Positions 39,219 to 55,399 of a stretch of DNA of 64,000 nt are shown here, one piece after another. Source of the stretch: an uncultured Bdellovibrionales bacterium (GTDB lineage Bacteria > Patescibacteriota > Minisyncoccia > Moranbacterales > UBA1568); NCBI GenBank assembly GCA_964451495.1, contig CAYVHS010000003.1:24826-88825 (forward strand), given 5' to 3'. How positions within the stretch are numbered: position 1 is the first letter of the stretch; each line of letters starts with the position of its first letter. The notes beneath the pieces were generated by a model, which was given only the letters and a program-made list of their open reading frames with translations, was not told the origin of the DNA and searched no databases. The position numbers were made by a program, and so were the translations under genes.

Positions 39219-42200
39219 ATGGTCAAGATTACTCACGGAGACATATCGCCCTCTGATGAAAAAAACAAACAAGCAGATGATCTCCTCCAAAAAATGCGCT
39301 CCGTCTCTATCGAAGAGACGGCTTCACGGTTGGCAGGCATGTGCGGTCTCCCTTATATTGATCTCGCTCTTTTCCCCGTTGAAGAAGAAAGCCTTTCGCT
39401 TATCAACGAGGCCGATGCGAGGCATCTAGGATTGGCTCTTTTCCAAAAAAAATCTACCAGGGCGAGCTTTGCCATCCTTGATCCAAACAACAAGGAAACT
39501 CTAGAATTTATCACAAAAGTCGCCCAAGAAAGGGGCTGGGAAGTAGAACTCTATGTCGTTTCGATACCGGCTCTCGAGGCAGCGTGGAAGACTTATTCCA
39601 AACATACGTTTATTGATAGCCTCGATCTCGTCCGCGTTTCACTCAAAGGCGATGATCTCGAAACATTTGATAAAAATTTTGGAGAACTTCTAGAATTAAA
39701 AGAAAATCATCGACTTAATACTTCTCGAGCCACAGAAATTATTCTCGCTGGAGCCAAGAAGCTTGACGCGAGTGATATTCATATCGAACCAGAAGAAGAG
39801 AGGGCTCGCCTGCGCTATCGTATCGATGGCGTACTCCAAGATATCGGCATGCTCCCGCTCGCCGTGTACCGACTCCTCCTGTCTCGTATCAAAATGATAG
39901 GCAAGATGCGCCTCAACGTCAGAGATAGAGCTCAGGATGGTCACTTCTTCGTCAATCTCGATGAAAAGCGCATCGATATCCGCGTCAACAGCATCCCCGG
40001 CAAATACGGCGAAAGCATCAACATGCGTCTTCTCTCAAGCGATGATGTTATTGCTGATATCGACAGTCTCGGTCTACGTGGTCTGGCCCGTGAAGAAATC
40101 CTCAAAGAAGTCGAGCGGCCTCACGGCATGATCCTCAATACCGGCCCGACCGGGTCTGGAAAAACAACTACTCTCTACACGCTCCTCCATCACATCAATC
40201 GTCCCGGGACAAAGATTATTACGGTCGAGGATCCAATCGAATATTCATTGCCCGGTATCGTCCAGACAGAAGTGTCCAAAGACAAATCATACACATTTGC
40301 TACCGCGCTCCGTGCCATCGTCCGTCAAGATCCAGATGTTCTCCTCGTCGGAGAAATCCGTGATGACGAAACTGCTGATATTGCCGTCAATGCCGCCCTC
40401 ACTGGGCATCTCGTCCTCTCAACGCTCCATGCTAATGGCGCTCCCGCTGCTGTTCCACGACTTATCGAGCTCGGTGTCAAACCATCGCTCATCACCGCCT
40501 CACTCAATATCATCATCGCTCAGCGCCTCGTCCGCGTGCTGTGTAAAAAATGTCGCACATCATACGAGCCAGCCAAATCGACATTCGATGTCATCACCAA
40601 GCTCATCACTATCATCTCTCCGAAAGCAAACGTGACACTGCCCAAAAAGATCGATGTCCTCTGGAAGGCCACGGGGTGCGCGGAATGCCACTTTACCGGC
40701 TACAAAGGACGTATCGGCATCTTCGAGATATTCTCTCTCTCCAAAGAAATCATCGAGATCATCAACAACATGGGTAATGAGCGTGAGATTCTCAAGGCCG
40801 CTCTCGAAGGCGGTATGGTCACCATGACACAAGACGGAATCCTCAAAACACTCGAGGGAATTACGACGCTCGATGAAATCTGGCGCGTCACCGACCAAGT
40901 AGATATGCTCAAAGAAATCTTCCTCGAACTCATGTCTGGTGATCTGCAGCGCACGCTCTTCATTCCAGAGAATCTCTCTTCTGATGTAGCGAAACACCTC
41001 TCTTCGCTCACCGAATTCTCACGCTATGCCAATACTATCGATTCACAGTTACGGTTTCAATCGATTTTCTCTGCGGCTATCGTCTCACGCGCTGGCGATA
41101 TCCATATCGAACCAGGAAACGAAACGTTCAGCGTCCGATTCCGCATCGATGGCATTCTTCAGAACGCTGCCACGTTTCCGATAAATGACTACCCGAGTCT
41201 CATCAGTGAGATAAAGACGCTCGTCGGACTCAAGATCGGTGAACGAGCTGGGGTGACCGATAAGCGTTTCTCTGTCACTCTCGAAAAGTCTCCCGATGCC
41301 GGCGTAAGCGAGAGGATAGATATCCGCCTCTCCCTTATCCCTGGAGGATTCGGCGAGACCATCGTTATGCGACTCCTCAATCAATCAGCCACAACGCTTG
41401 ATCTAGAAACACTCGATATCCGCAAACAAAACATCGAAAAAATTCTCGCCTCTATAAAAAAACCACACGGTATCATCCTTAATACTGGTCCTACTGGATC
41501 TGGAAAAACGACGACGCTCTACAGCACTCTCTCGCTACTCAATAAACCTGAAGTGAAAATCATCACCGTCGAAGATCCAATCGAATATCAGATGCAAGGT
41601 GTCCTCCAGACTCAAGTAAACGAAGCCGAGGGGTACACGTTCTCGACTGCTCTCCGCTCTCTCCTCCGTCAAAACCCAGATATCCTCATGATTGGCGAAA
41701 TCCGCGATGATGAGACAGCACAAATCGCCATCCAATCCGCCAATACGGGGCACCTCGTCCTCTCGACGCTCCATACCAATTCTGCAGCCGGCACCATTCC
41801 TCGTCTCATGAAAATGGGCGTTTCTGGTGATGACCTCGCCAATGCCGGAGGATCACTCATCGCGCAGCGACTCGTCCGCAGACTCTGCAAAGAATGCAAG
41901 GAATTGGCGCCTCTATCAGATGAGGATGCCCAGAAGATTACACAAACCCTCGCATCTCTTTCAGAAAAAGCAGGTGTCACTCTACCCACAGACAAACAGA
42001 CAGCATGGATACACAAAGGCTGCCCTGTCTGCCATGGCACCGGCTATTCCGGCCAACTAGTCCTCTCCGAAGTGATTCCGCTCGATAATGATATCAAAGA
42101 CCTCATCGCCAGAGGAGCCCTCACTCACGAGATCGAAGAAAAAGCTCTCGAAAATGGGATGATCACCATCGCGCAAGATGGTGTGCTCGCAGTACTCGAG

Positions 42201-42245
42201 GGACGCACCACTCTCGAGGAAGTAAAGCGCGTAACTGATTTCTAA
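39219..42245 (+). CDS. GspE/PilB-family secretion ATPase with two tandem complete ATPase cores (1008 aa)
   Basis: An N-terminal GSPII_E_N-like domain, then two repeats each with ASDIHIEP...RIDGVLQ, Walker A LNTGPTGSGKTTTLY, Asp box, Walker B/His box (LVGEIRD...LVLSTLH) and a tetra-Cys motif (CKKC...CAEC and CKEC...CPVC). Confidence 0.85.
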   Translation: MVKITHGDISPSDEKNKQADDLLQKMRSVSIEETASRLAGMCGLPYIDLALFPVEEESLSLINEADARHLGLALFQKKSTRASFAILDPNNKETLEFITKVAQERGWEVELYVVSIPALEAAWKTYSKHTFIDSLDLVRVSLKGDDLETFDKNFGELLELKENHRLNTSRATEIILAGAKKLDASDIHIEPEEERARLRYRIDGVLQDIGMLPLAVYRLLLSRIKMIGKMRLNVRDRAQDGHFFVNLDEKRIDIRVNSIPGKYGESINMRLLSSDDVIADIDSLGLRGLAREEILKEVERPHGMILNTGPTGSGKTTTLYTLLHHINRPGTKIITVEDPIEYSLPGIVQTEVSKDKSYTFATALRAIVRQDPDVLLVGEIRDDETADIAVNAALTGHLVLSTLHANGAPAAVPRLIELGVKPSLITASLNIIIAQRLVRVLCKKCRTSYEPAKSTFDVITKLITIISPKANVTLPKKIDVLWKATGCAECHFTGYKGRIGIFEIFSLSKEIIEIINNMGNEREILKAALEGGMVTMTQDGILKTLEGITTLDEIWRVTDQVDMLKEIFLELMSGDLQRTLFIPENLSSDVAKHLSSLTEFSRYANTIDSQLRFQSIFSAAIVSRAGDIHIEPGNETFSVRFRIDGILQNAATFPINDYPSLISEIKTLVGLKIGERAGVTDKRFSVTLEKSPDAGVSERIDIRLSLIPGGFGETIVMRLLNQSATTLDLETLDIRKQNIEKILASIKKPHGIILNTGPTGSGKTTTLYSTLSLLNKPEVKIITVEDPIEYQMQGVLQTQVNEAEGYTFSTALRSLLRQNPDILMIGEIRDDETAQIAIQSANTGHLVLSTLHTNSAAGTIPRLMKMGVSGDDLANAGGSLIAQRLVRRLCKECKELAPLSDEDAQKITQTLASLSEKAGVTLPTDKQTAWIHKGCPVCHGTGYSGQLVLSEVIPLDNDIKDLIARGALTHEIEEKALENGMITIAQDGVLAVLEGRTTLEEVKRVTDF

Positions 42246-46127: not shown

Positions 46128-46784
46128 ATGCAATACCATCCGCTTATCACTTTTTTTGTCGAGCAAGGACTCCCGCTCCAGACGGTCACTCTTCTCCTCA
46201 TGCTGCCTATAGTCGCGACCTTAGTGGCATTCTTCCGTCAGGTGATCGGCATCAAAGCCTTTGGGATCTATACCCCCTCCATCATCACGTTCGCGCTCGT
46301 CGCTTTTGACCCGAATGGCCTCAAATACGGCATCACAATTTTTATTAGTGTTATTTTGGTGGGGATGGTGTCGCGTTTCATCCTTCAAAAGTTTCGTTTG
46401 CTCTATCTACCACGGGTGGCCATCACTCTTTCTATTGTCTCATTAGCTGTGCTCGGTATCTTGGCAATCGGGGGGGTTTTCCATCGGACAGGACTGGCTG
46501 GCATCGATATTTTCCCGCTCCTTATCATGATTACTTTGGTTGAAAAATTTGTAGCGACTCAAATCGAAAAAGGGAGTCGCGTTGCATTCATACTCGCTAT
46601 CGAAACATTGGTTATTTCTATCGCGGGCTACTTTCTGATACGATGGACTGCCCTAACGTCTCTTATCCTTCACTACCCCTGGGCTATTCTTCCTACCTTC
46701 CTCATCAATTTTTCCCTCGGAAAATGGGACGGTCTCCGTGTCACAGAATATATTCGTTTCCGAAAAATTTTTCGCTACATGTAG
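46128..46784 (+). CDS. Polytopic (6-7 TM) membrane protein, first gene of the ATP-grasp module
   Basis: 218 aa, essentially all TM helices. It sits immediately upstream of two ATP-grasp genes on the same strand. Confidence 0.55.
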   Translation: MQYHPLITFFVEQGLPLQTVTLLLMLPIVATLVAFFRQVIGIKAFGIYTPSIITFALVAFDPNGLKYGITIFISVILVGMVSRFILQKFRLLYLPRVAITLSIVSLAVLGILAIGGVFHRTGLAGIDIFPLLIMITLVEKFVATQIEKGSRVAFILAIETLVISIAGYFLIRWTALTSLILHYPWAILPTFLINFSLGKWDGLRVTEYIRFRKIFRYM

Positions 46785-46815
46785 GCCTCTTCTCTTTGTT
46801 TTTTGACTCTTCCTT

Positions 46816-48213
46816 ATGTTTGAATTTTTCAGGAAAAGCAGTGGGTTGCTCGGCATGAATGCGAGGAATCTCAATTATATTCGCCCCTACAACCGCACGC
46901 GCAGCCGTGAAATAGCGGATAACAAACTTCTCTGTAAACGAATTTTACAGAAAAATGGCCTCGGTGTATCAGCACTGGTGGCCAAAATCCGCACCTACGA
47001 AGAGCTTGACCACTTTGACTGGGCCAGTCTCCCTGATAGCTTTGCACTCAAACCCAATCGTGGTTTTGGAGGCGAAGGCATCCTGGTTGTGTATGCTCGA
47101 AAAAAAAATCGTCCTGATGCTTGGGTCAAGGCCGATGGTTCTATCATAACTATCGAAGATATCAGAAACCATATTCGTAACATCATCGATGGCTCTTTCT
47201 CTCTCAATAACACTCCGGATATCGCTTTTTTTGAAGAACGTCTCAAACTCTCTAAATTTCTCAAGCCCTACACATACAAGGGCATTCCTGATATCCGTGT
47301 TATTATTTTCAATCGTGTCCCTGTCATGGCTATGCTTCGTCTCCCCACGCGTGCTTCTGATGGCAAGGCCAATCTCCAGCAAGGGGCTATCGGCGTAGGT
47401 ATTGATATGGCTACCGGCACGACTACCACCGCCATCTTGGGCAAGGGTCATATCATCGAATATGTTCCCGATACGCGCCTCATTCTCTCTGGTATTAAAA
47501 TTCCCTACTGGAAAGATATCCTCCGCATGTCCATTCAAGCCCAAGAACTTTCTGGATTGGGCTTTCTCGGGGCGGATATTGCTATCGATCGCGAACGAGG
47601 GCCAGTCATCCTCGAGCTCAATGCCAGGCCAGGACTCTCGATCCAGCTCGCCAACCTCTCTGGACTCAAAGAAAGACTCAAGCGTGTCTCTGGGCTCAAA
47701 ATAAAGACATCTGAACGGGGCATGCGAGTCGGCATGAATCTCTTCGGTGGTGAAATCGAAGAAGAAATCGAGGGACTCTCCGGGAAACGAGTCATCGGTA
47801 CTATCGAAAAAGTAAAACTTATCGGCAAAGACGGTGTAGAAATTGAAGTTAACGCCAAAATTGATACCGGCGCCGACTCAACATCTATCGATACCGAACT
47901 CGCCAAAGCACTCGGGTTTGAAAAAACTTTGGAACTTTTTTCCGAAAGAATTACGCCTTATGAAGATATCCTTAGTGAGCTTGTCAAAGAAAAACGAGAA
48001 CGCTTGTTCTCCGATATCCCTGACTTAGCAGACACCGTACCCGTCAAATCCTCCCATGGATATTCCTACCGGCCAAAAATCCTTGTCACGCTCACGATGG
48101 ACATGATAACCTTGCCAGCAAAAGTATCGGTTATCGATCGATCCCATCTCGAATATCAAGTAATTATCGGCCGCAAACATCTCAGAAAATTTCTTGTTGA
48201 TGTAAGTAAATAA
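46816..48213 (+). CDS. ATP-grasp amidoligase (alpha-L-glutamate-ligase-related type) fused to a C-terminal retropepsin-like aspartyl peptidase domain
   Basis: 465 aa. The N-terminus has GMNARNLNYIRPYNR ... ALKPNRGFGGEGILVVY ... VILELNARPGLSIQLAN (ATP-grasp). The C-terminus has VIGTIEKVKLIGKDGVEIEVNAKIDTGADSTSID (DTGA active-site motif of the RimK-associated retropepsin-like fold). Confidence 0.7.
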   Translation: MFEFFRKSSGLLGMNARNLNYIRPYNRTRSREIADNKLLCKRILQKNGLGVSALVAKIRTYEELDHFDWASLPDSFALKPNRGFGGEGILVVYARKKNRPDAWVKADGSIITIEDIRNHIRNIIDGSFSLNNTPDIAFFEERLKLSKFLKPYTYKGIPDIRVIIFNRVPVMAMLRLPTRASDGKANLQQGAIGVGIDMATGTTTTAILGKGHIIEYVPDTRLILSGIKIPYWKDILRMSIQAQELSGLGFLGADIAIDRERGPVILELNARPGLSIQLANLSGLKERLKRVSGLKIKTSERGMRVGMNLFGGEIEEEIEGLSGKRVIGTIEKVKLIGKDGVEIEVNAKIDTGADSTSIDTELAKALGFEKTLELFSERITPYEDILSELVKEKRERLFSDIPDLADTVPVKSSHGYSYRPKILVTLTMDMITLPAKVSVIDRSHLEYQVIIGRKHLRKFLVDVSK

Positions 48214-48225
48214 CTCTACCCTACT

Positions 48226-49230
48226 ATGAACATAAGCGACATTCACGAATACACGCAACACGGGGGGGTCCGCTCTCTTTTGAAACGCGCCATCGAGTGT
48301 GGCATCCGCGTCTCCGCTCTTCCTGGAGCAACTCGTCTCACGCGATTCGACTACGCAGATAAGATTTTTTTTCTCAAAGGCGCCAATGCTCCCGTCATGC
48401 GAAGGATGGGCAATTTTACCAGAGACAAAAACCTCACTAAAACTCTTCTCGAGGCTATCGGGGTCCGAACACCACGCGGCATCGTCGCGAGCTCTGTAAA
48501 AGATGCTTTGGAGCTGATTAAAACACAAGAGCTCTCATTCCCTCTTATCCTAAAACCGACGCATGGGTCGAGGGCACTGGGGGTAACATGGGATATACGT
48601 TCTGAAAAAAACCTTCGGGGAGCTTTTGCTCATTTTCAAGTTATCAGCAAAAAAAATGATTTTAAGAAAATTACCTTTCTGGTCGAAGAAATGTTCATTG
48701 GCAATGAATACCGCGTACTCGTTCTAAATGACAAAGTCATCTCCTGCGTGGAAAAGGTGCCAGCAACCGTCATCGGCGATGGAGAATCATCAACACAAGC
48801 CCTCATCGATGCATTCAACAAGACTCGCCTTTTAGGATTCAAAATCCGTGTCGATGCCATCGTTAAAAACACTCTCAAAGCGAAGGGGTTAACACTCAAA
48901 TCAATCCTTCCTCATAATTATGTTCTGCGGCTCAGAAATAATCTCAACATGTCTGATGGAGGCCGATCCATCGACAGGACAGCGGCTATCCACCAGTCAT
49001 TCAAAGACCTCTGTGTCAAAGCGACAGAGATTACCGGCCTTACTTTTGCTGGTGTTGATGTTATCGCAAAAGATATTTCTACATCAGCCAAGCAAGGCTC
49101 TTATGTTATCCTCGAACTCAATCCAAATCCATATTACAACATGAATGAAAAACCCCTCGTAGAAGGCAAAGGGGTCGATGTCTCACTCCTCCTCCTGAAA
49201 AATATCTTTCCGTCGCTCAAGAAGAATTAG
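48226..49230 (+). CDS. ATP-grasp family ligase (RimK / cyanophycin-synthetase-N-terminal-like)
   Basis: 334 aa. LTKTLLEAIGVRTPRG...FPLILKPTHGSRALGV...YRVLVLNDKVISCVEK...YVILELNPNPYYNMNE fits an ATP-grasp fold. Confidence 0.7.
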   Translation: MNISDIHEYTQHGGVRSLLKRAIECGIRVSALPGATRLTRFDYADKIFFLKGANAPVMRRMGNFTRDKNLTKTLLEAIGVRTPRGIVASSVKDALELIKTQELSFPLILKPTHGSRALGVTWDIRSEKNLRGAFAHFQVISKKNDFKKITFLVEEMFIGNEYRVLVLNDKVISCVEKVPATVIGDGESSTQALIDAFNKTRLLGFKIRVDAIVKNTLKAKGLTLKSILPHNYVLRLRNNLNMSDGGRSIDRTAAIHQSFKDLCVKATEITGLTFAGVDVIAKDISTSAKQGSYVILELNPNPYYNMNEKPLVEGKGVDVSLLLLKNIFPSLKKN

Positions 49231-49293: not shown

Positions 49294-49330
49294 AAAAAAC
49301 CACCCTTCGATAGACTCTAGGTGGTTTTTA
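49294..49330. terminator. Bidirectional intrinsic terminator between the ATP-grasp module (+) and the PBP gene (-)
   Basis: aaaaaaccacccttcgatagactctaggtggttttta, stem ACCACC/GGTGGT with an A-run upstream and a T-run downstream. Confidence 0.6.
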
Positions 49331-49344
49331 TTTCAAACATCTCC

Positions 49345-52008
49345 TTAGGGGGTGGTCACAGTAATGCTCTTCTGGTCGCTCACTTTGTTCCCATTATCAT
49401 CTTCCACTTCCACTTTAACCGAAAGAGAAGACTTGTCCGATGGAACGGAGTAACTCACAGAATATGATTCTGATTCGCCTGAACCAACCTCGGATCCCTC
49501 GACAGAGTACTTCACACTTTTTACTCCATAGGGGGCATCAATATTAGCACGGAGAGTAATAGAGGATGATGCCTCCGCGCTCCCTGGCACAGAGAGACTC
49601 ACTTCTGGCATATTCCCCTTAAAATCACTTGCCTTACAATCATCCCTCGGTGGAGCCGCCATGGTTTTAGACCCTTTCTTCTGACTCTTATACCAATCCT
49701 TTACCCCCTCTTCCCAATTTTTATACTGGGAATTACTCTCTGGCTTATCTGGAATTGGCCCGCGCGGATCGTCTGTCGACACATAATGCAAGATATCATG
49801 CGGGCTGATAAAATCTTTCTTTTCCGTATCGCTATCCGAACAATATTTATTAGCGAGACAATAGGTATTTTTTTCGCCAGGAATTTTACAAACTTTCAAA
49901 TTCTCCTCTTTCTCAAGTTTTCCAGCGAGCATAGGTTTATTGGTTTTACCATCACCGTCACCGATCTCATCATCAGGATTATATTTCGGAAATTCTTCAA
50001 CCGCATAATTTGCTAACGCCTTATCAAGAAACGCCCGCCAGATGGGCGCGGCAACATTCACACCATCCGCTCCCGCTATCATAGACGAGTTATCATTATT
50101 CCCCGCCCACACACCAACAGCGAGTGATGGAGTATACCCAATAGTCCATCCGTCTCGGAATTCATTTGTGGTGCCCGTCTTCGCTGCCACAGGACGATTG
50201 TCGAATCGAAGTGGACTATTCTCACCAAATACCCACGCACGATTATCATTGTTCGAAAGAATTGAATCGAGCATTGCTACATACTTTTCATCCACAACAC
50301 GCTCACCAGCATCTACCTTGAACTCTTCGAGCACTCCACCCTTAGCATCCTCAATCTTAAGAACAGAGGCTCCACTCCGTTTAATTCCACCTGTCGCAAG
50401 TGTACTAAAGGCGTTTACATGATCGAGAAGCTTCACATCCCCACCACCGAGCACAAGTGAGAGCCCTAATTGATCCAAATTATTCAAACCAGAAATTCCC
50501 AGGTTCTTAGCTAGAGTGACGGCGTCTTTTACACCGACAAGGTACAACATCTTCACAGCGGGTACATTAAGCGATCCACCGAGCGCCTTCATCACTGATA
50601 CGGGCCCATGAAACTCCCCCGTATAGTTCTGGGGTTCATAGCTTTTTCCTTCTGCGGTCTCAAACTGCGTCTTCACATCATAGAGCATCGTTTCTGGTAA
50701 ATACCCTTTCGTAAAAGCCGATAGATACACATATGGCTTAAATGATGATCCTGGTTGCTGAAGAGATGTGGCCACATTGAAGTTTGGTTCAAATACACAA
50801 GATTTTCCAGAAACACAATTGGCTGGCTCTGGTGTACCAAAATAATCCTTGGATCCAACCATAGCGAGGATCTGTCCAGTTTTCGGATCCATCGCGACCA
50901 GCGCAGCATTCGCTGATTTCCACTTCTTATTTTTTTCCACTCCTTCACGCACTGCCTGCTCAGCAGCCTGCTGTTTATCCCAATCAAGCGTAGTCGTCAC
51001 TTTGAAACCACTCTGTTCCACCGCCTGGTCTCCATACTTCTGCTGTAAATAATCCTTAATAAACATGACAAAATGCGGCGCAGCAATGATATTTTTTTGT
51101 GGTTGAATCTTGTCGAGTGTATTAGTATCCAAAGCCTCATTTGCTTGATCTTCAGAGATATACCCCAGACTCTTCATTTGCTTCAAAGCAAAGGCTTTGC
51201 GACCAATAAGGGCATCGCGATGAGACCCATAGGGAGAATAATACGCCGTGGCCTGAGGAAGGGCCGCGATAAGGGCCGCTTCATCTAGAGAGAGTTCCCG
51301 AGCTGGCTTACCAAAAAAAGTCTGTGCAGCAGCTTCTACACCATATGCATTTGACCCATAAGGAATTTCATTGAGATACATTGCCAAGATTTCATCTTTG
51401 GAAAACTTTGTTTCCATCTCGAGCGAAAGAATTACTTCTTTGATTTTTCTCGTCAAAGTCTTTTCATTCGAGAGAAGTGAGTTTTTCACAAACTGCTGAG
51501 TAATAGTCGATCCACCCTGCGCTTTACCAAATTGTGTAATATCTTTGAATATAGAACGAGCGATTGAGGTGAGTTTAATACCATGATGTGAATAAAAATC
51601 CTGGTCCTCGAGACTAATTGTGGCATATTTCACAACATCAGGCATATCTGAAAACGGTATAATAGTGCGCTTCTCCTCTCCATGTACTTCATATAGAAGA
51701 TGCACTCCAGTTCGATCGTATATTTTCGTTGATTCTGGTATGAAACGAGTATTGACACTCCCTGGACTTGGAAGATCTTTAGCAAAAAATGCAAAAACAC
51801 CAATAATTACAATAATACCCACAAAAGAAAGACTAAGCATCCCTTTCCAAAGAAGGGGCCAAATTTTATTTTTCTGCTTTGTTTCCGGAAGAAATCTCCG
51901 CTTTTTAAGAAGAAATGCCATAAAAATACCAAAAGGATACACACTCATTATACACCATACAAAAGCCACCTCACACAAAACACCCCCTTCCCTTGTTTTT
52001 ATTATCAA
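49345..52008 (-). CDS. Class A penicillin-binding protein (transglycosylase + transpeptidase) with a C-terminal Ser-rich repeat extension
   Basis: 887 aa. GT51 motifs (EDQDFYSHHGI, GGSTITQQ), a transpeptidase SxxK (SSFKPYVYL) and KTGT. The start may be an internal Met. Confidence 0.85.
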   Translation of the reverse strand: MIIKTREGGVLCEVAFVWCIMSVYPFGIFMAFLLKKRRFLPETKQKNKIWPLLWKGMLSLSFVGIIVIIGVFAFFAKDLPSPGSVNTRFIPESTKIYDRTGVHLLYEVHGEEKRTIIPFSDMPDVVKYATISLEDQDFYSHHGIKLTSIARSIFKDITQFGKAQGGSTITQQFVKNSLLSNEKTLTRKIKEVILSLEMETKFSKDEILAMYLNEIPYGSNAYGVEAAAQTFFGKPARELSLDEAALIAALPQATAYYSPYGSHRDALIGRKAFALKQMKSLGYISEDQANEALDTNTLDKIQPQKNIIAAPHFVMFIKDYLQQKYGDQAVEQSGFKVTTTLDWDKQQAAEQAVREGVEKNKKWKSANAALVAMDPKTGQILAMVGSKDYFGTPEPANCVSGKSCVFEPNFNVATSLQQPGSSFKPYVYLSAFTKGYLPETMLYDVKTQFETAEGKSYEPQNYTGEFHGPVSVMKALGGSLNVPAVKMLYLVGVKDAVTLAKNLGISGLNNLDQLGLSLVLGGGDVKLLDHVNAFSTLATGGIKRSGASVLKIEDAKGGVLEEFKVDAGERVVDEKYVAMLDSILSNNDNRAWVFGENSPLRFDNRPVAAKTGTTNEFRDGWTIGYTPSLAVGVWAGNNDNSSMIAGADGVNVAAPIWRAFLDKALANYAVEEFPKYNPDDEIGDGDGKTNKPMLAGKLEKEENLKVCKIPGEKNTYCLANKYCSDSDTEKKDFISPHDILHYVSTDDPRGPIPDKPESNSQYKNWEEGVKDWYKSQKKGSKTMAAPPRDDCKASDFKGNMPEVSLSVPGSAEASSSITLRANIDAPYGVKSVKYSVEGSEVGSGESESYSVSYSVPSDKSSLSVKVEVEDDNGNKVSDQKSITVTTP

Positions 52009-52559: not shown

Positions 52560-53708
52560 TTATTTCTTGATTGGCATTATAATATAAAGATATTCATTTT
52601 GAACACTATTATTTTTACTAACCATTTTCAGCGCGGCGGGAGTTGTCCCTGTATTCGCACAAAAAAGCATCTTTTCACTTGAAAGAGCATTCACCCCCTC
52701 TAAAACATACCGTGGATTAAATACTATTCTAAGCGGCGTCGCTTCTTGTAAAAATTCTCCCTCAAGCACAGTTTTATTCTCACCTATCTCTTGTGATGAA
52801 GAGGTGACTGTACAGGATTTTGCTTGTGGATCAAAAGAAAGAGTGATTTCATTAGCATCATACGAAGAAAAAGCACTCGCTATTTTTATTGCTCGCTGAA
52901 AGGCCTCTTTATTAAAAACACATTGCAAAGAAAAAGATTGTGGAATTATCTGCTTATAATCAGGATATTTTCCATTAATTACACGTGAAATTATCTGCAC
53001 TCCATCAATTTCAAAAAAAATCTGATTTTCTTCAAGCGCAATCTTTACCTCATTACTCTCAGGGGTAATAACACGATTAATCTCCTGTAATGTACCACTT
53101 GGAAGAATAAGTGATGGATTCTGCTCTAAAAAGTCTTCATATCGGCTCTTATGTTCTAAAAATGGAATCACTTCTTCCGCAAGACGAAAACTATCTGTTG
53201 CTGCTAAATGAAGAGCATCTTTTAAAAAGAATATATTTACTCCAGTTAATTCAAGACGAGCCTCATTTAAACTCACACAAAATAAAAGCCTAGAAAGAGC
53301 GCTTTTTAATTCTTGAGCTGGGAAAGAAAATAAATATTCCTTTTTATATTGTGGAATAATAGGAAAATCCTTTCCATCTAAGCCTTTTATCCTCATTTGA
53401 TGAGAAGTGCTTGATATTTTTAATGTTTGATTATCAGATTCAAGCTCTAAAACATCACCACTAGGAAGATTATGGATAAAATTACTCAATAATTTAGCTG
53501 GGATAGCAATTTTCCCTTCCTTTTCTATTTTTGCCCCTATATATGATATAACACCAATTTCTAGATTTGTTGCAGAAAGTTTTAATCTTCCATTTTCTGT
53601 TTCTAGAAGAAAGTTACTTAGAATAGGTAGTGTAGATTGTTTTCCTACTACTCGCTCGAGATATGTGAGGGATTTTGCAAGATTTTCTTGGGTACAAATA
53701 AGTTTCAT
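52560..53708 (-). CDS. dnaN: DNA polymerase III beta sliding clamp
   Basis: 382 aa. MKLICTQENLAKSLTYLERVVGKQSTLPILSNFLLETENGRLKLSATNLEIGV. Confidence 0.9.
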   Translation of the reverse strand: MKLICTQENLAKSLTYLERVVGKQSTLPILSNFLLETENGRLKLSATNLEIGVISYIGAKIEKEGKIAIPAKLLSNFIHNLPSGDVLELESDNQTLKISSTSHQMRIKGLDGKDFPIIPQYKKEYLFSFPAQELKSALSRLLFCVSLNEARLELTGVNIFFLKDALHLAATDSFRLAEEVIPFLEHKSRYEDFLEQNPSLILPSGTLQEINRVITPESNEVKIALEENQIFFEIDGVQIISRVINGKYPDYKQIIPQSFSLQCVFNKEAFQRAIKIASAFSSYDANEITLSFDPQAKSCTVTSSSQEIGENKTVLEGEFLQEATPLRIVFNPRYVLEGVNALSSEKMLFCANTGTTPAALKMVSKNNSVQNEYLYIIMPIKK

Positions 53709-53992: not shown

Positions 53993-55399
53993 TTAGTTGT
54001 AATAGAGACGCTCTTTTAATGTAGAGAGCTCTTCTTTGAGTCGTATATTTGTTTCTTTCCCCTTATTTATTTTTTCAAAAGCATGGAGGGTGGTGGTGTG
54101 ATCGCGGCCGCCGAGAATTTCTCCGATAGTAGAAAATGGAGTTTGAAGTTCGCTACGGAGTATAAACATCATTACTTGGCGGGGATGGGAAATTTCCTTT
54201 TTCCGACCCTTTTTGAGGAGATCTTCTCTTGTCACGGTATAAAACTCCATAATAACTCGGAATATATCATCTACCTGGAGTGTTTTTTTGTTGTTTTCAA
54301 TGAGTTGAGAAAGAATTTTTTCAGTATTTTCAATTGTGGGAGGTATTTTATGGAATTCACAAAAGGCAATAACTCTATTAAGGGCCCCTTCAAGTTCGCG
54401 AATATTTTGTGAGATATTTTCTGCGATATAGCGAATGGACGGGGTGTCTATATGAAAACCCTTTTCAGTAATTTTTGCCTCAAGGATGGCGATTCTTGTT
54501 TCAACATTAGGACGGCTAATGTCGGTGATCATACCCCCTTCAAAACGTGAACGGAGACGTTCTTCTAGGGTGGGAATCGCTTTGGGAGGGCGGTCGCTTG
54601 ATATAACTATTTGTTTATTGAGCTGGTAGAGAGCGTTAAATATGTGGAAGAATTCGTTTTGGGTCTTTTCTCGGCCAGAAAGAAATTGAATATCATCAAT
54701 AATGAGGAGATCCATCTGTTGGTAGTATTCTTTAAATTTATCAATCTTCTGATTTTTAATAGAATCAACCAGTTCTGTGGTAAATCGCTCAGAATTAATA
54801 TATTTTATGCGTTTTTCTGGGGAGTTCTTCATCACTTCATTCCCAATAGATTGGAGGAGATGAGTTTTTCCGAGGCCTACTCCTCCATAAATAAAGAGTG
54901 GGTTATAAGCCATTCCAAGATTTTGTGAAACAGCAAAGCAGGCAGCTTTCGCTAACTCGTTATTTTCAGCAACGATAAAATTTTCAAATGTGTAGCGATT
55001 GTTAAGGTTTGTTTCATGGAAAATAGGTGTAGAGGGAGCCGCTGCGGTAAAAAATGGCTTTTCTATAATCTTTTTTCTAACAAAACCGTTTGTTGATGGG
55101 GCTTGGACGGCGTCAATATTTTTTATAGAATCAACTGTTTGAGTGGTGGGTTTTTCTGGAGAAATGATGCATCGAATCTCTTGAATTTCTGGATGAAAGC
55201 CCTTGAGTGCTTTAAGAATATAGATATTATACTTGTTTTCAAGCCACTCTTTGGCAAATCCATTTGGTACTCCAATAGTGACACTATTGTCTTGGTTACT
55301 CAAAATACTGGTATTTTTAAACCAGGTAATGAAGTTTGCTTTGGAGATAGAGAGTTCGATTTGGCCCAAAACAGCCCTCCATAACTCGTCGTTTGTCAT
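53993..55399 (-). CDS. dnaA: Chromosomal replication initiator DnaA
   Basis: 468 aa. Walker A GGVGLGKTHLLQ, LLIDDIQFLSG (box VII region), and a C-terminal DNA-binding domain ...HTTTLHAFEKI. Confidence 0.95.
   Translation of the reverse strand: MTNDELWRAVLGQIELSISKANFITWFKNTSILSNQDNSVTIGVPNGFAKEWLENKYNIYILKALKGFHPEIQEIRCIISPEKPTTQTVDSIKNIDAVQAPSTNGFVRKKIIEKPFFTAAAPSTPIFHETNLNNRYTFENFIVAENNELAKAACFAVSQNLGMAYNPLFIYGGVGLGKTHLLQSIGNEVMKNSPEKRIKYINSERFTTELVDSIKNQKIDKFKEYYQQMDLLIIDDIQFLSGREKTQNEFFHIFNALYQLNKQIVISSDRPPKAIPTLEERLRSRFEGGMITDISRPNVETRIAILEAKITEKGFHIDTPSIRYIAENISQNIRELEGALNRVIAFCEFHKIPPTIENTEKILSQLIENNKKTLQVDDIFRVIMEFYTVTREDLLKKGRKKEISHPRQVMMFILRSELQTPFSTIGEILGGRDHTTTLHAFEKINKGKETNIRLKEELSTLKERLYYN

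Follow-up and report, generated by a model that had tools for sequence, protein, structure and literature searches.

Gene neighbourhoods predicted to centre on ATP-grasp amidoligases are said to have been described by Iyer, Abhiman, Burroughs and Aravind in 2009; going by the Pfam descriptions, that work is the source of the families PF14397 and PF14402. Its domain vocabulary reportedly comprised ATP-grasp ligases, a seven-transmembrane (7TM) protein, retropepsin-like and DUF1704/MATCAP peptidases and GNAT proteins, and it is shared with the locus considered here, a three-gene module at positions 46128-49230 of a 64,000-nucleotide stretch of contig CAYVHS010000003.1 (hereafter the window, meaning the whole stretch that was analysed). 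With moderate confidence, we interpret this module as the form that the Rlo-type ‘7TM + ATP-grasp + retropepsin’ amidoligase system takes in Patescibacteria, consisting of a two-protein core and an exchangeable helper: a membrane-docked ligase would make acidic chains, a protease fused to it would trim them and stimulate their synthesis, and the 7TM protein would receive or export them. Two described systems frame this comparison. In the RimK/RimB system the substrate is ribosomal protein S6, with a C-terminal Glu. The cytoplasmic retropepsin homologue RimB trims poly-Glu tails and raises RimK's synthesis of poly-alpha-L-Glu about fourfold; the two also occur in nature as a RimB-RimK hybrid, RimBK, which is proteolytically active (Little et al., JBC 2025; PMC11957791). 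The second system was described in Pseudomonas aeruginosa and P. fluorescens, and the P. aeruginosa operon, characterised through both genetics and structures, was named rloABC (Lormand et al., mBio 2025; PMC12239564). Of the P. aeruginosa proteins, RloA is a retropepsin that is secreted, RloB combines an inactive transglutaminase with a 7TM domain, and RloC is an ATP-grasp protein of the cytoplasm. When all three RloA paralogues are missing, the result is hypo-osmotic lethality together with defects in biofilm, antibiotic tolerance and cell shape, and these defects of the triple protease mutant are suppressed by deletion of rloB or rloC, which argues that the RloC ligase and the RloB 7TM protein make what RloA removes. 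RloA cuts runs of at least eight Glu residues; K46, R114 and R137 line its substrate channel, and both in vitro cleavage and in vivo function depend on them; R114A and R137A abolish function. Matches to RloB lie to 96% in Proteobacteria (PMC12239564).

The module comprises three open reading frames (ORFs), all on the + strand, with 31 nucleotides between g1 and g2 and 12 between g2 and g3; a first-pass annotation made from the sequence alone had described three co-directional genes spaced by 10-30 nucleotides, and this layout holds. The middle gene, g2 (46816..48213, +), encodes 465 amino acids in which an acidic linker connects an RloC-type ATP-grasp ligase to a RimB/RloA-type retropepsin. 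It had been read as an alpha-L-glutamate-ligase-related ATP-grasp domain joined to a retropepsin with a DTGA motif, and profile matches to TIGR02291, PF14397 and PF05618 agree with this. The ligase domain (residues 7-293; 46834..47694, +) matches TIGR02291, ‘alpha-L-glutamate ligase-like’, at 1.3e-87 with 293.8 bits, slightly under the cut-off of 314.2, and PF14397, ATPgrasp_ST, at 2.2e-69 with 234 bits (cut-off 31.4). The possibility that it is an enzyme of primary metabolism, named in advance as a test of the annotation, is contradicted by the scores on the Ddl and RimK equivalog models, which reach 11-13 bits against 293.8 on TIGR02291. Assignments as Ddl, as a carboxylase or as RimK proper were rejected, all scoring far under their cut-offs. 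In an alignment of 21 diverse fusions with 37-79% identity to g2, all share the ATP-grasp residues K79, D254, E267 and N269. The AlphaFold (AF2) model of g2 has a predicted local distance difference test score (pLDDT) of 89.5, and a Foldseek query with the whole fusion placed the ligase half nearest to the solved folds of ArgX/LysX, the CphA1 G-domain and RimK, all ligases that extend peptide C-termini. The N-terminus is the ATP-grasp domain itself, with no hydrophobic leader and no signal peptide. Judged by its sequence, g2 is a bifunctional cytoplasmic ligase-peptidase with both catalytic sets intact.

As the Foldseek matches were dominated by the ATP-grasp half, the assignment of the C-terminal domain relies on sequence profiles. 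Residues 324-464 (47785..48207, +) match PF05618 at 7.2e-08 with 32.9 bits (cut-off 27), with AKIDTGA and IIGR motifs, and match RloA3 at 4.3e-08; the RloA1-3 models give 23-33 bits against cut-offs of 210-280. A profile of the domain matches PDB entry 9g58 (2.9e-11) and then 9g59, 2pma, Ddi1 and the Rickettsia retropepsin, and it is this wider set that marks the domain as a genuine retropepsin. Alignment to 9g58, both direct and through the domain profile, pairs the catalytic D350 (47863-47865) with D28, K348 with K26, R419 with R94 and R442 with R117. The same four residues, K348, D350, R419 and R442, align with K46, D48, R114 and R137 of RloA, and the offsets from the catalytic aspartate (-2, +66 and +89) are identical in the two proteins. 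At least 90% of the 21 fusions keep D350, G352, R419, R442 and G452. The close homologues of g2 form more than 120 clusters, and K/R-x-D[TS]G-A is kept in 120/120 of those compared; D[TS]G is found in 28 of 39 more distant fusions of about 465 amino acids. Loss of the DTGA motif in orthologs had likewise been set down as a result that would count against the annotation, and it is not what these counts show. By alignment, the g2 peptidase keeps the poly-Glu-binding residues of RloA.

Ligase and protease are joined by a short acidic linker, LFGGEIEEEIEGL (residues 309-321; 47740..47778, +). An LFGG followed by an acidic run (EIEE.[IVL]E) occupies this place in 120/120 close homologues, the form LFGGEIEEEIE(E/G)LSGK being nearly invariant, and is absent from stand-alone RloC-like proteins. 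The block 311-320 has a low pLDDT of 66 and is predicted to be flexible. Lying beside a poly-Glu-binding protease, the linker might serve as a pseudo-substrate or as a site of self-processing; its cleavage is doubtful, since RloA tolerates no bulky residues within a Glu run (PMC12239564).

The partner of g2 is g1 (46128..46784, +), which encodes an RloB-type 7TM membrane protein of 218 amino acids with no extracellular transglutaminase or PKD domain. The annotation had called it a 7TM protein, in agreement with its match to PF14402, 7TM_transglut (9.6e-26, 91 bits), and with an AF2 model, built from database homologues, that shows seven long helices followed by a C-terminal amphipathic helix (pLDDT 82.8). 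The NCBIfam RloB model NF052267 gives 76 bits (cut-off 900) and aligns only over its positions 305-506 of 508; because the match is confined to this part, g1 corresponds to the 7TM half of RloB without the inactive transglutaminase domain. A reading-frame check showed that a longer ORF extending upstream is not possible. The protein carries 14 lysines and arginines on its predicted cytoplasmic side and three outside, and the cytoplasmic loops (GIKAFGIY, RLL-YLPR, EKFVATQIEKG) are 96-100% conserved, with a variable outer face. We therefore have a model-based prediction of an N-out/C-in topology with the cytoplasmic face best conserved, consistent with relatives in which a ligase domain is fused C-terminally to the 7TM domain (P0242). 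The pairing of the two genes is close to constant. A scan of one genome per species yielded 80 loci with the fusion, at 57-81% amino-acid identity to g2, or 81 with the window's own contig, and g1 lies directly upstream of g2 in 80/81; the sole exception is interrupted by a contig end. Taken over the genes of the module, identity across the 80 other species-level genomes is 57-85%, more than chance would give. The overlap of the g1 stop with the g2 start by 4 or 26 nucleotides in many loci suggests translational coupling.

These observations bear on the possibility that the module is a regulatory switch of the RimK kind and not a device for polymer export: the ligase would polyglutamylate a specific protein at its C-terminus, the candidates being ribosomal S6 and membrane proteins, the 7TM protein itself among them, and this modification would be reversed by the fused protease. 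RimK and RimB set the precedent, together with the active RimBK hybrid (PMC11957791); the g2 protease is cytoplasmic like RimB, and some related loci include accessory carboxypeptidases of the MATCAP type, a Pfam family named after microtubule-associated tyrosine carboxypeptidase. The ligase, however, stands outside the RimK family, scoring 34.5 bits on TIGR00768 (cut-off 143.4) and 13 on PRK10446 (cut-off 331), and an obligatory, translationally coupled 7TM partner has no part in ribosome tailing. The C-terminus of g1 is basic and its last residues are not conserved, and a comparison of the related neighbourhoods revealed no conserved acceptor gene. We consider such tailing unlikely.

The third gene, g3 (48226..49230, +), encodes a stand-alone ATP-grasp ligase of 334 amino acids resembling the cyanophycin-synthetase G-domain and the C-terminal domain of GshF. 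Its description in the annotation as a RimK/cyanophycin-synthetase-like ATP-grasp enzyme is confirmed by a match of 1.2e-57 to TIGR02068, over positions 210-474 of CphA, and it matches PRK02471, the GshF C-terminal ATP-grasp, at 1.5e-45. Its best matches in the PDB are the solved CphA2 and CphA1 structures, 8fxh (3.3e-34) and 7lg5 (CphA1, 1.2e-33). The alignments run along the whole ATP-grasp (G) domain and include the S-x-GG-x-S-x-D loop and the E-x-N Mg site. We rejected the reading of g3 as a true synthetase of cyanophycin or glutathione: the matches are to ATP-grasp only, without an N-domain, a Mur-ligase-like M-domain or a GshA domain.

The annotation had also treated the three genes as one module, and here it stands in part: g1 and g2 belong together, and g3 is not a fixed member, a role that was tried and rejected since its type is absent from most related loci while g1 and g2 persist. 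An ATP-grasp ligase is the first gene downstream of g2 in 67/77 readable loci, with families that are interchangeable: the g3 type (cluster-1, CphA-G-like) fills this place in 29/77 and an unrelated RimK/YheCD/GSH-S-like cluster in 38/77, the latter often as two or three tandem copies. Elsewhere the slot also holds MATCAP/DUF1704 metallocarboxypeptidases, Mur-ligase-like proteins, GNAT acetyltransferases, GT1 glycosyltransferases, YdjC and DUF3541. As the third slot varies in family from locus to locus, the constant core is g1 plus g2, and g3 is a lineage-variable, exchangeable accessory. In three loci a Mur-ligase-like gene (PF08245/PF02875) adjoins an ATP-grasp gene in the slot (L043:8359-9618, L056:8392-9663 and L080:3412-4686), pairs reminiscent of a split G+M arrangement of cyanophycin synthetase.

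Might g3 and the core together make a reserve polymer of the cyanophycin type? The CphA1 and CphA2 G-domains are indeed the best matches of g3, and the few loci with a Mur-ligase-like neighbour recall a split CphA. Against this, an N-domain and an M-domain or Mur-ligase partner are all missing from the window, the core persists in most related loci without g3, and g3 scores far below the CphA cut-off (195 versus 850 bits). A storage role thus appears very improbable.

An exhaustive profile-free search returned 2115 relatives at E <= 1e-3, and their architectures tie the 7TM, ligase and peptidase parts into one machine. Besides the stand-alone ligase (about 310 amino acids) they include the two-part forms ligase + retropepsin (about 465 amino acids) and 7TM + ligase, and the three-part forms ligase + retropepsin + YdjC, ligase + retropepsin + second ATP-grasp and transglutaminase + 7TM + ligase, as well as ligase + retropepsin-like + MATCAP (about 790-916 amino acids). 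The fusion of about 465 amino acids occurs in Jacksonbacteria and Kerfeldbacteria too. In other lineages of the Candidate Phyla Radiation (CPR) the 7TM partner (516-550 amino acids) bears an N-terminal PKD domain (L082:6390-7991, L084:6418-8001, L085:1870-3420); the same N-terminal place is taken by an inactive transglutaminase in proteobacterial RloB and by no extra domain in Moranbacteria. Among the long fusions (at least 640 amino acids, mostly of the class of about 790; P0135, P0148-P0217, L085:3474-5876), in which MATCAP is the usual partner domain and for several of which the architecture ligase + retropepsin-like + MATCAP was confirmed, 31/39 lack D[TS]G and have a shortened retropepsin-like domain. 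Their sequences suggest that the MATCAP metallocarboxypeptidase replaced the retropepsin-like domain as the active peptidase. In a Kerfeldbacteria fusion (L084:8001-9883) the retropepsin motif is degenerate (ALIDTGL) and gives no Pfam match, and a separate RimB-like gene of 158 amino acids follows immediately. Since loss of D[TS]G is accompanied by a MATCAP domain or by a stand-alone RimB-like gene, peptidase activity appears to be retained while the domain that supplies it changes.

How might such a module work? In the Rlo-type mechanism that we propose, g2 would dock on the conserved cytoplasmic loops and the C-terminal tail of g1. Its ligase domain would add amino acids, in an ATP-dependent manner, to a C-terminal carboxylate and would most probably build alpha-linked, Glu-rich chains of the poly-Glu type. 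The retropepsin domain would dimerise and cut long acidic chains, yielding shorter chains and regenerated primers and stimulating synthesis, as RimB does for RimK. As acceptor the enzyme could use a free peptide, the C-terminus of a protein or a glycan of the envelope. The 7TM protein would receive the product and probably pass it to the cell surface. The ligase g3 and its counterparts elsewhere may add further residues or make the primer; with accessory ligases that are interchangeable in this way, the product would differ between lineages. Several points weigh against this proposal. Neither here nor in Pseudomonas does an RloB/RloC-type protein have a demonstrated product, acceptor or transport activity, and we infer the amino-acid specificity of the g2 ligase from its partner protease alone. 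The score of the ligase falls slightly short of the trusted cut-off of TIGR02291 (293.8 versus 314.2 bits). A comparison of the g1 fold with solved structures found no informative relative, which makes the role of exporter a guess. The retropepsin is cytoplasmic in this module and periplasmic in Pseudomonas, so that the order of events, trimming before or after export, may differ. Finally, the Pfam name of PF14397, ‘sugar-transfer associated’, and the glycosyltransferase, YdjC and GalT genes found in some variable slots fit a glycan acceptor equally well.

The last of these points leads to the surroundings of the module. The PBP1A gene (49345-52008, -) is convergent with it in the window, and the space between carries a hairpin flanked by an A-run and a T-run (49295..49329, no strand assigned), with a 10-bp stem that includes some A-U pairs, a loop of 15 nucleotides, a folding free energy of -11.7 kcal/mol and a z-score of -2.63 relative to shuffled sequences. 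It is a probable bidirectional terminator of moderate strength; the ‘strong terminator’ of the annotation claims too much for a hairpin at z -2.6 that a scan for consensus promoters and terminators, whose sites were no commoner than in shuffled sequences, did not pick up. An identical sequence is present on a public metagenome contig (Logan SRR27639470), where the gene order is RuvB, two small membrane proteins, YebC, RuvC, g1, g2, g3, convergent PBP1A, dnaN and dnaA. In the window dnaN (52560-53708, -) and dnaA (53993-55399, -) together lie about 3-6 kb downstream of the module. Their position, a sign change of the GC skew around 54-56 kb and a dip of the GC content to 0.33 at 52-54 kb place the chromosomal origin probably near 55.4-55.7 kb. 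PBP1A is convergent with the module also in L003, L025 and L028 and co-directional downstream in most Moranbacteria, which indicates a local inversion, and the order YebC-RuvC-7TM-ligase...PBP1A is retained in one Kerfeldbacteria locus and one uncultured CPR contig. Upstream of ruvB the window encodes an unusually long T2SSE/PilB-type secretion ATPase of 1008 amino acids (39219-42245, +), with two T2SSE matches and a MshEN domain. The named close homologues of g2 are almost all annotated as Candidatus Moranbacteria or Moraniibacteriota, a Patescibacteria (CPR) lineage to which the genome in the window belongs as well. Many third-party-annotation (TPA) metagenome bins with a Moranbacteria-type locus (62-81% identity), for example L009, L013, L015, L017, L051 and L063, are labelled ‘uncultured Bdellovibrionales’, ‘Bathyarchaeia archaeon’ or ‘Fimivivens’; these labels are probably taxonomic mislabels or reflect bin contamination.

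A PBP1A gene as conserved neighbour in Moranbacteria, in the Kerfeldbacteria locus and on the uncultured CPR contig invites a different interpretation, namely that the module decorates the cell envelope. The ligases would place amino acids or short peptides on a carboxylate, which could belong to a peptidoglycan stem peptide, to a lipid-linked glycan or to a polymer of the teichuronic type; the 7TM protein would be a flippase or an acceptor platform, and the peptidase would edit the peptide. The curated ‘sugar-transfer associated’ name of PF14397 is in keeping with this, as are the GT1, YdjC and GalT genes or domains that occupy the variable slot or are joined to the ligase, the cell-shape and beta-lactam phenotypes of Pseudomonas rlo mutants (PMC12239564) and the extracellular domains of related 7TM proteins (PKD, inactive transglutaminase), which suggest envelope contacts. 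The g2 retropepsin nevertheless retains the residues that bind long poly-Glu stretches, the nearest ligase folds work on peptide C-termini, and the sugar-related genes are confined to a minority of loci. PBP1A, moreover, often has an opposite-strand tRNA synthetase gene between itself and the module, and in the window its orientation is inverted; for these reasons its linkage may be plain synteny. On balance, decoration of the envelope seems to us an improbable account. A bolder reading, which we regard as distinctly less probable still, holds that the module produces an anionic surface coat, made of peptide or decorated with it, that varies by lineage and is a core trait of Patescibacteria episymbionts, its product diversified by the interchangeable accessory ligases and peptidases, and that the g2 linker is an intramolecular pseudo-substrate or self-processing site, which would make the fusion a self-regulated ‘polyprotein’ like the retroviral protease in Gag-Pol.

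What are the implications of the Rlo-type reading? The Rlo phenotypes of Pseudomonas are strong, affecting osmotic survival, biofilm, antibiotic tolerance and cell shape, and the statement of the annotation that neighbourhoods of this type have no firmly established substrate still applies to the physiological substrate, that of the rlo system included (PMC12239564). The natural fusions imply, as far as sequences can tell, that an RloC-type ligase and a retropepsin act jointly as a unit, with the ligase working on the cytoplasmic side of the 7TM protein. As a single polypeptide of 465 amino acids with no signal peptide and putatively no disulfide requirement, g2 offers a tractable handle on the Rlo product. 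The conserved synteny is retained in Moranbacteria, whose only complete relative in our set (L056) has a genome of about 1 Mb, and other CPR lineages have kept the module too; such retention points to an important function, which may lie in the envelope. The hyper-variable slot for accessory ligases and peptidases suggests diversification of the product and bears on surface presentation by episymbionts.

How, then, does the locus compare with the systems already described? In the literature open to searching we found no description of this fused CPR variant, and the Rlo paper mentions neither fusions nor Patescibacteria (PMC12239564). The annotation had presented the gene fusion and the transglutaminase-less 7TM protein as variations on an amidoligase neighbourhood, and it was right to do so; that neighbourhood now bears the name of the rlo system (PMC12239564), and a retropepsin-ligase hybrid is known in RimBK (PMC11957791). 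Like the rlo operon, the module unites in one operon a PF14402 7TM protein, an ATP-grasp ligase that matches PF14397 and, slightly under the cut-off, TIGR02291, and a PF05618 retropepsin with K-x-DTGA and the two poly-Glu-binding arginines. The peptidase is here fused to the C-terminus of the ligase, cytoplasmic and devoid of a signal peptide, whereas RloA is secreted and stands alone; the 7TM protein lacks the periplasmic inactive-transglutaminase domain of RloB; one or more extra ATP-grasp ligases lie downstream; and the host belongs to the Patescibacteria. With RimK/RimB and RimBK the module shares a cytoplasmic retropepsin physically coupled to an ATP-grasp ligase, by fusion in the case of the hybrid. 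The domain order is reversed, RimB being N-terminal in RimBK and the retropepsin C-terminal in g2; the ligase of g2 comes from the RloC/ATPgrasp_ST family, unlike RimK; and the 7TM partner, obligatory here, sets the module apart from RimK/RimB. The product of the third gene, g3, is akin along its whole G domain to the CphA1/CphA2 G-domain and the GshF C-terminal ATP-grasp, and differs from CphA and GshF in being a stand-alone protein of 334 amino acids with no N-, M- or GshA domain and with scores far under the family cut-offs. What is new, in sum, is a fused, minimal CPR variant of the named Rlo system, in which the idea of joining ligase and retropepsin has its precedent in RimBK and is carried out in the opposite order and with a ligase of another family.

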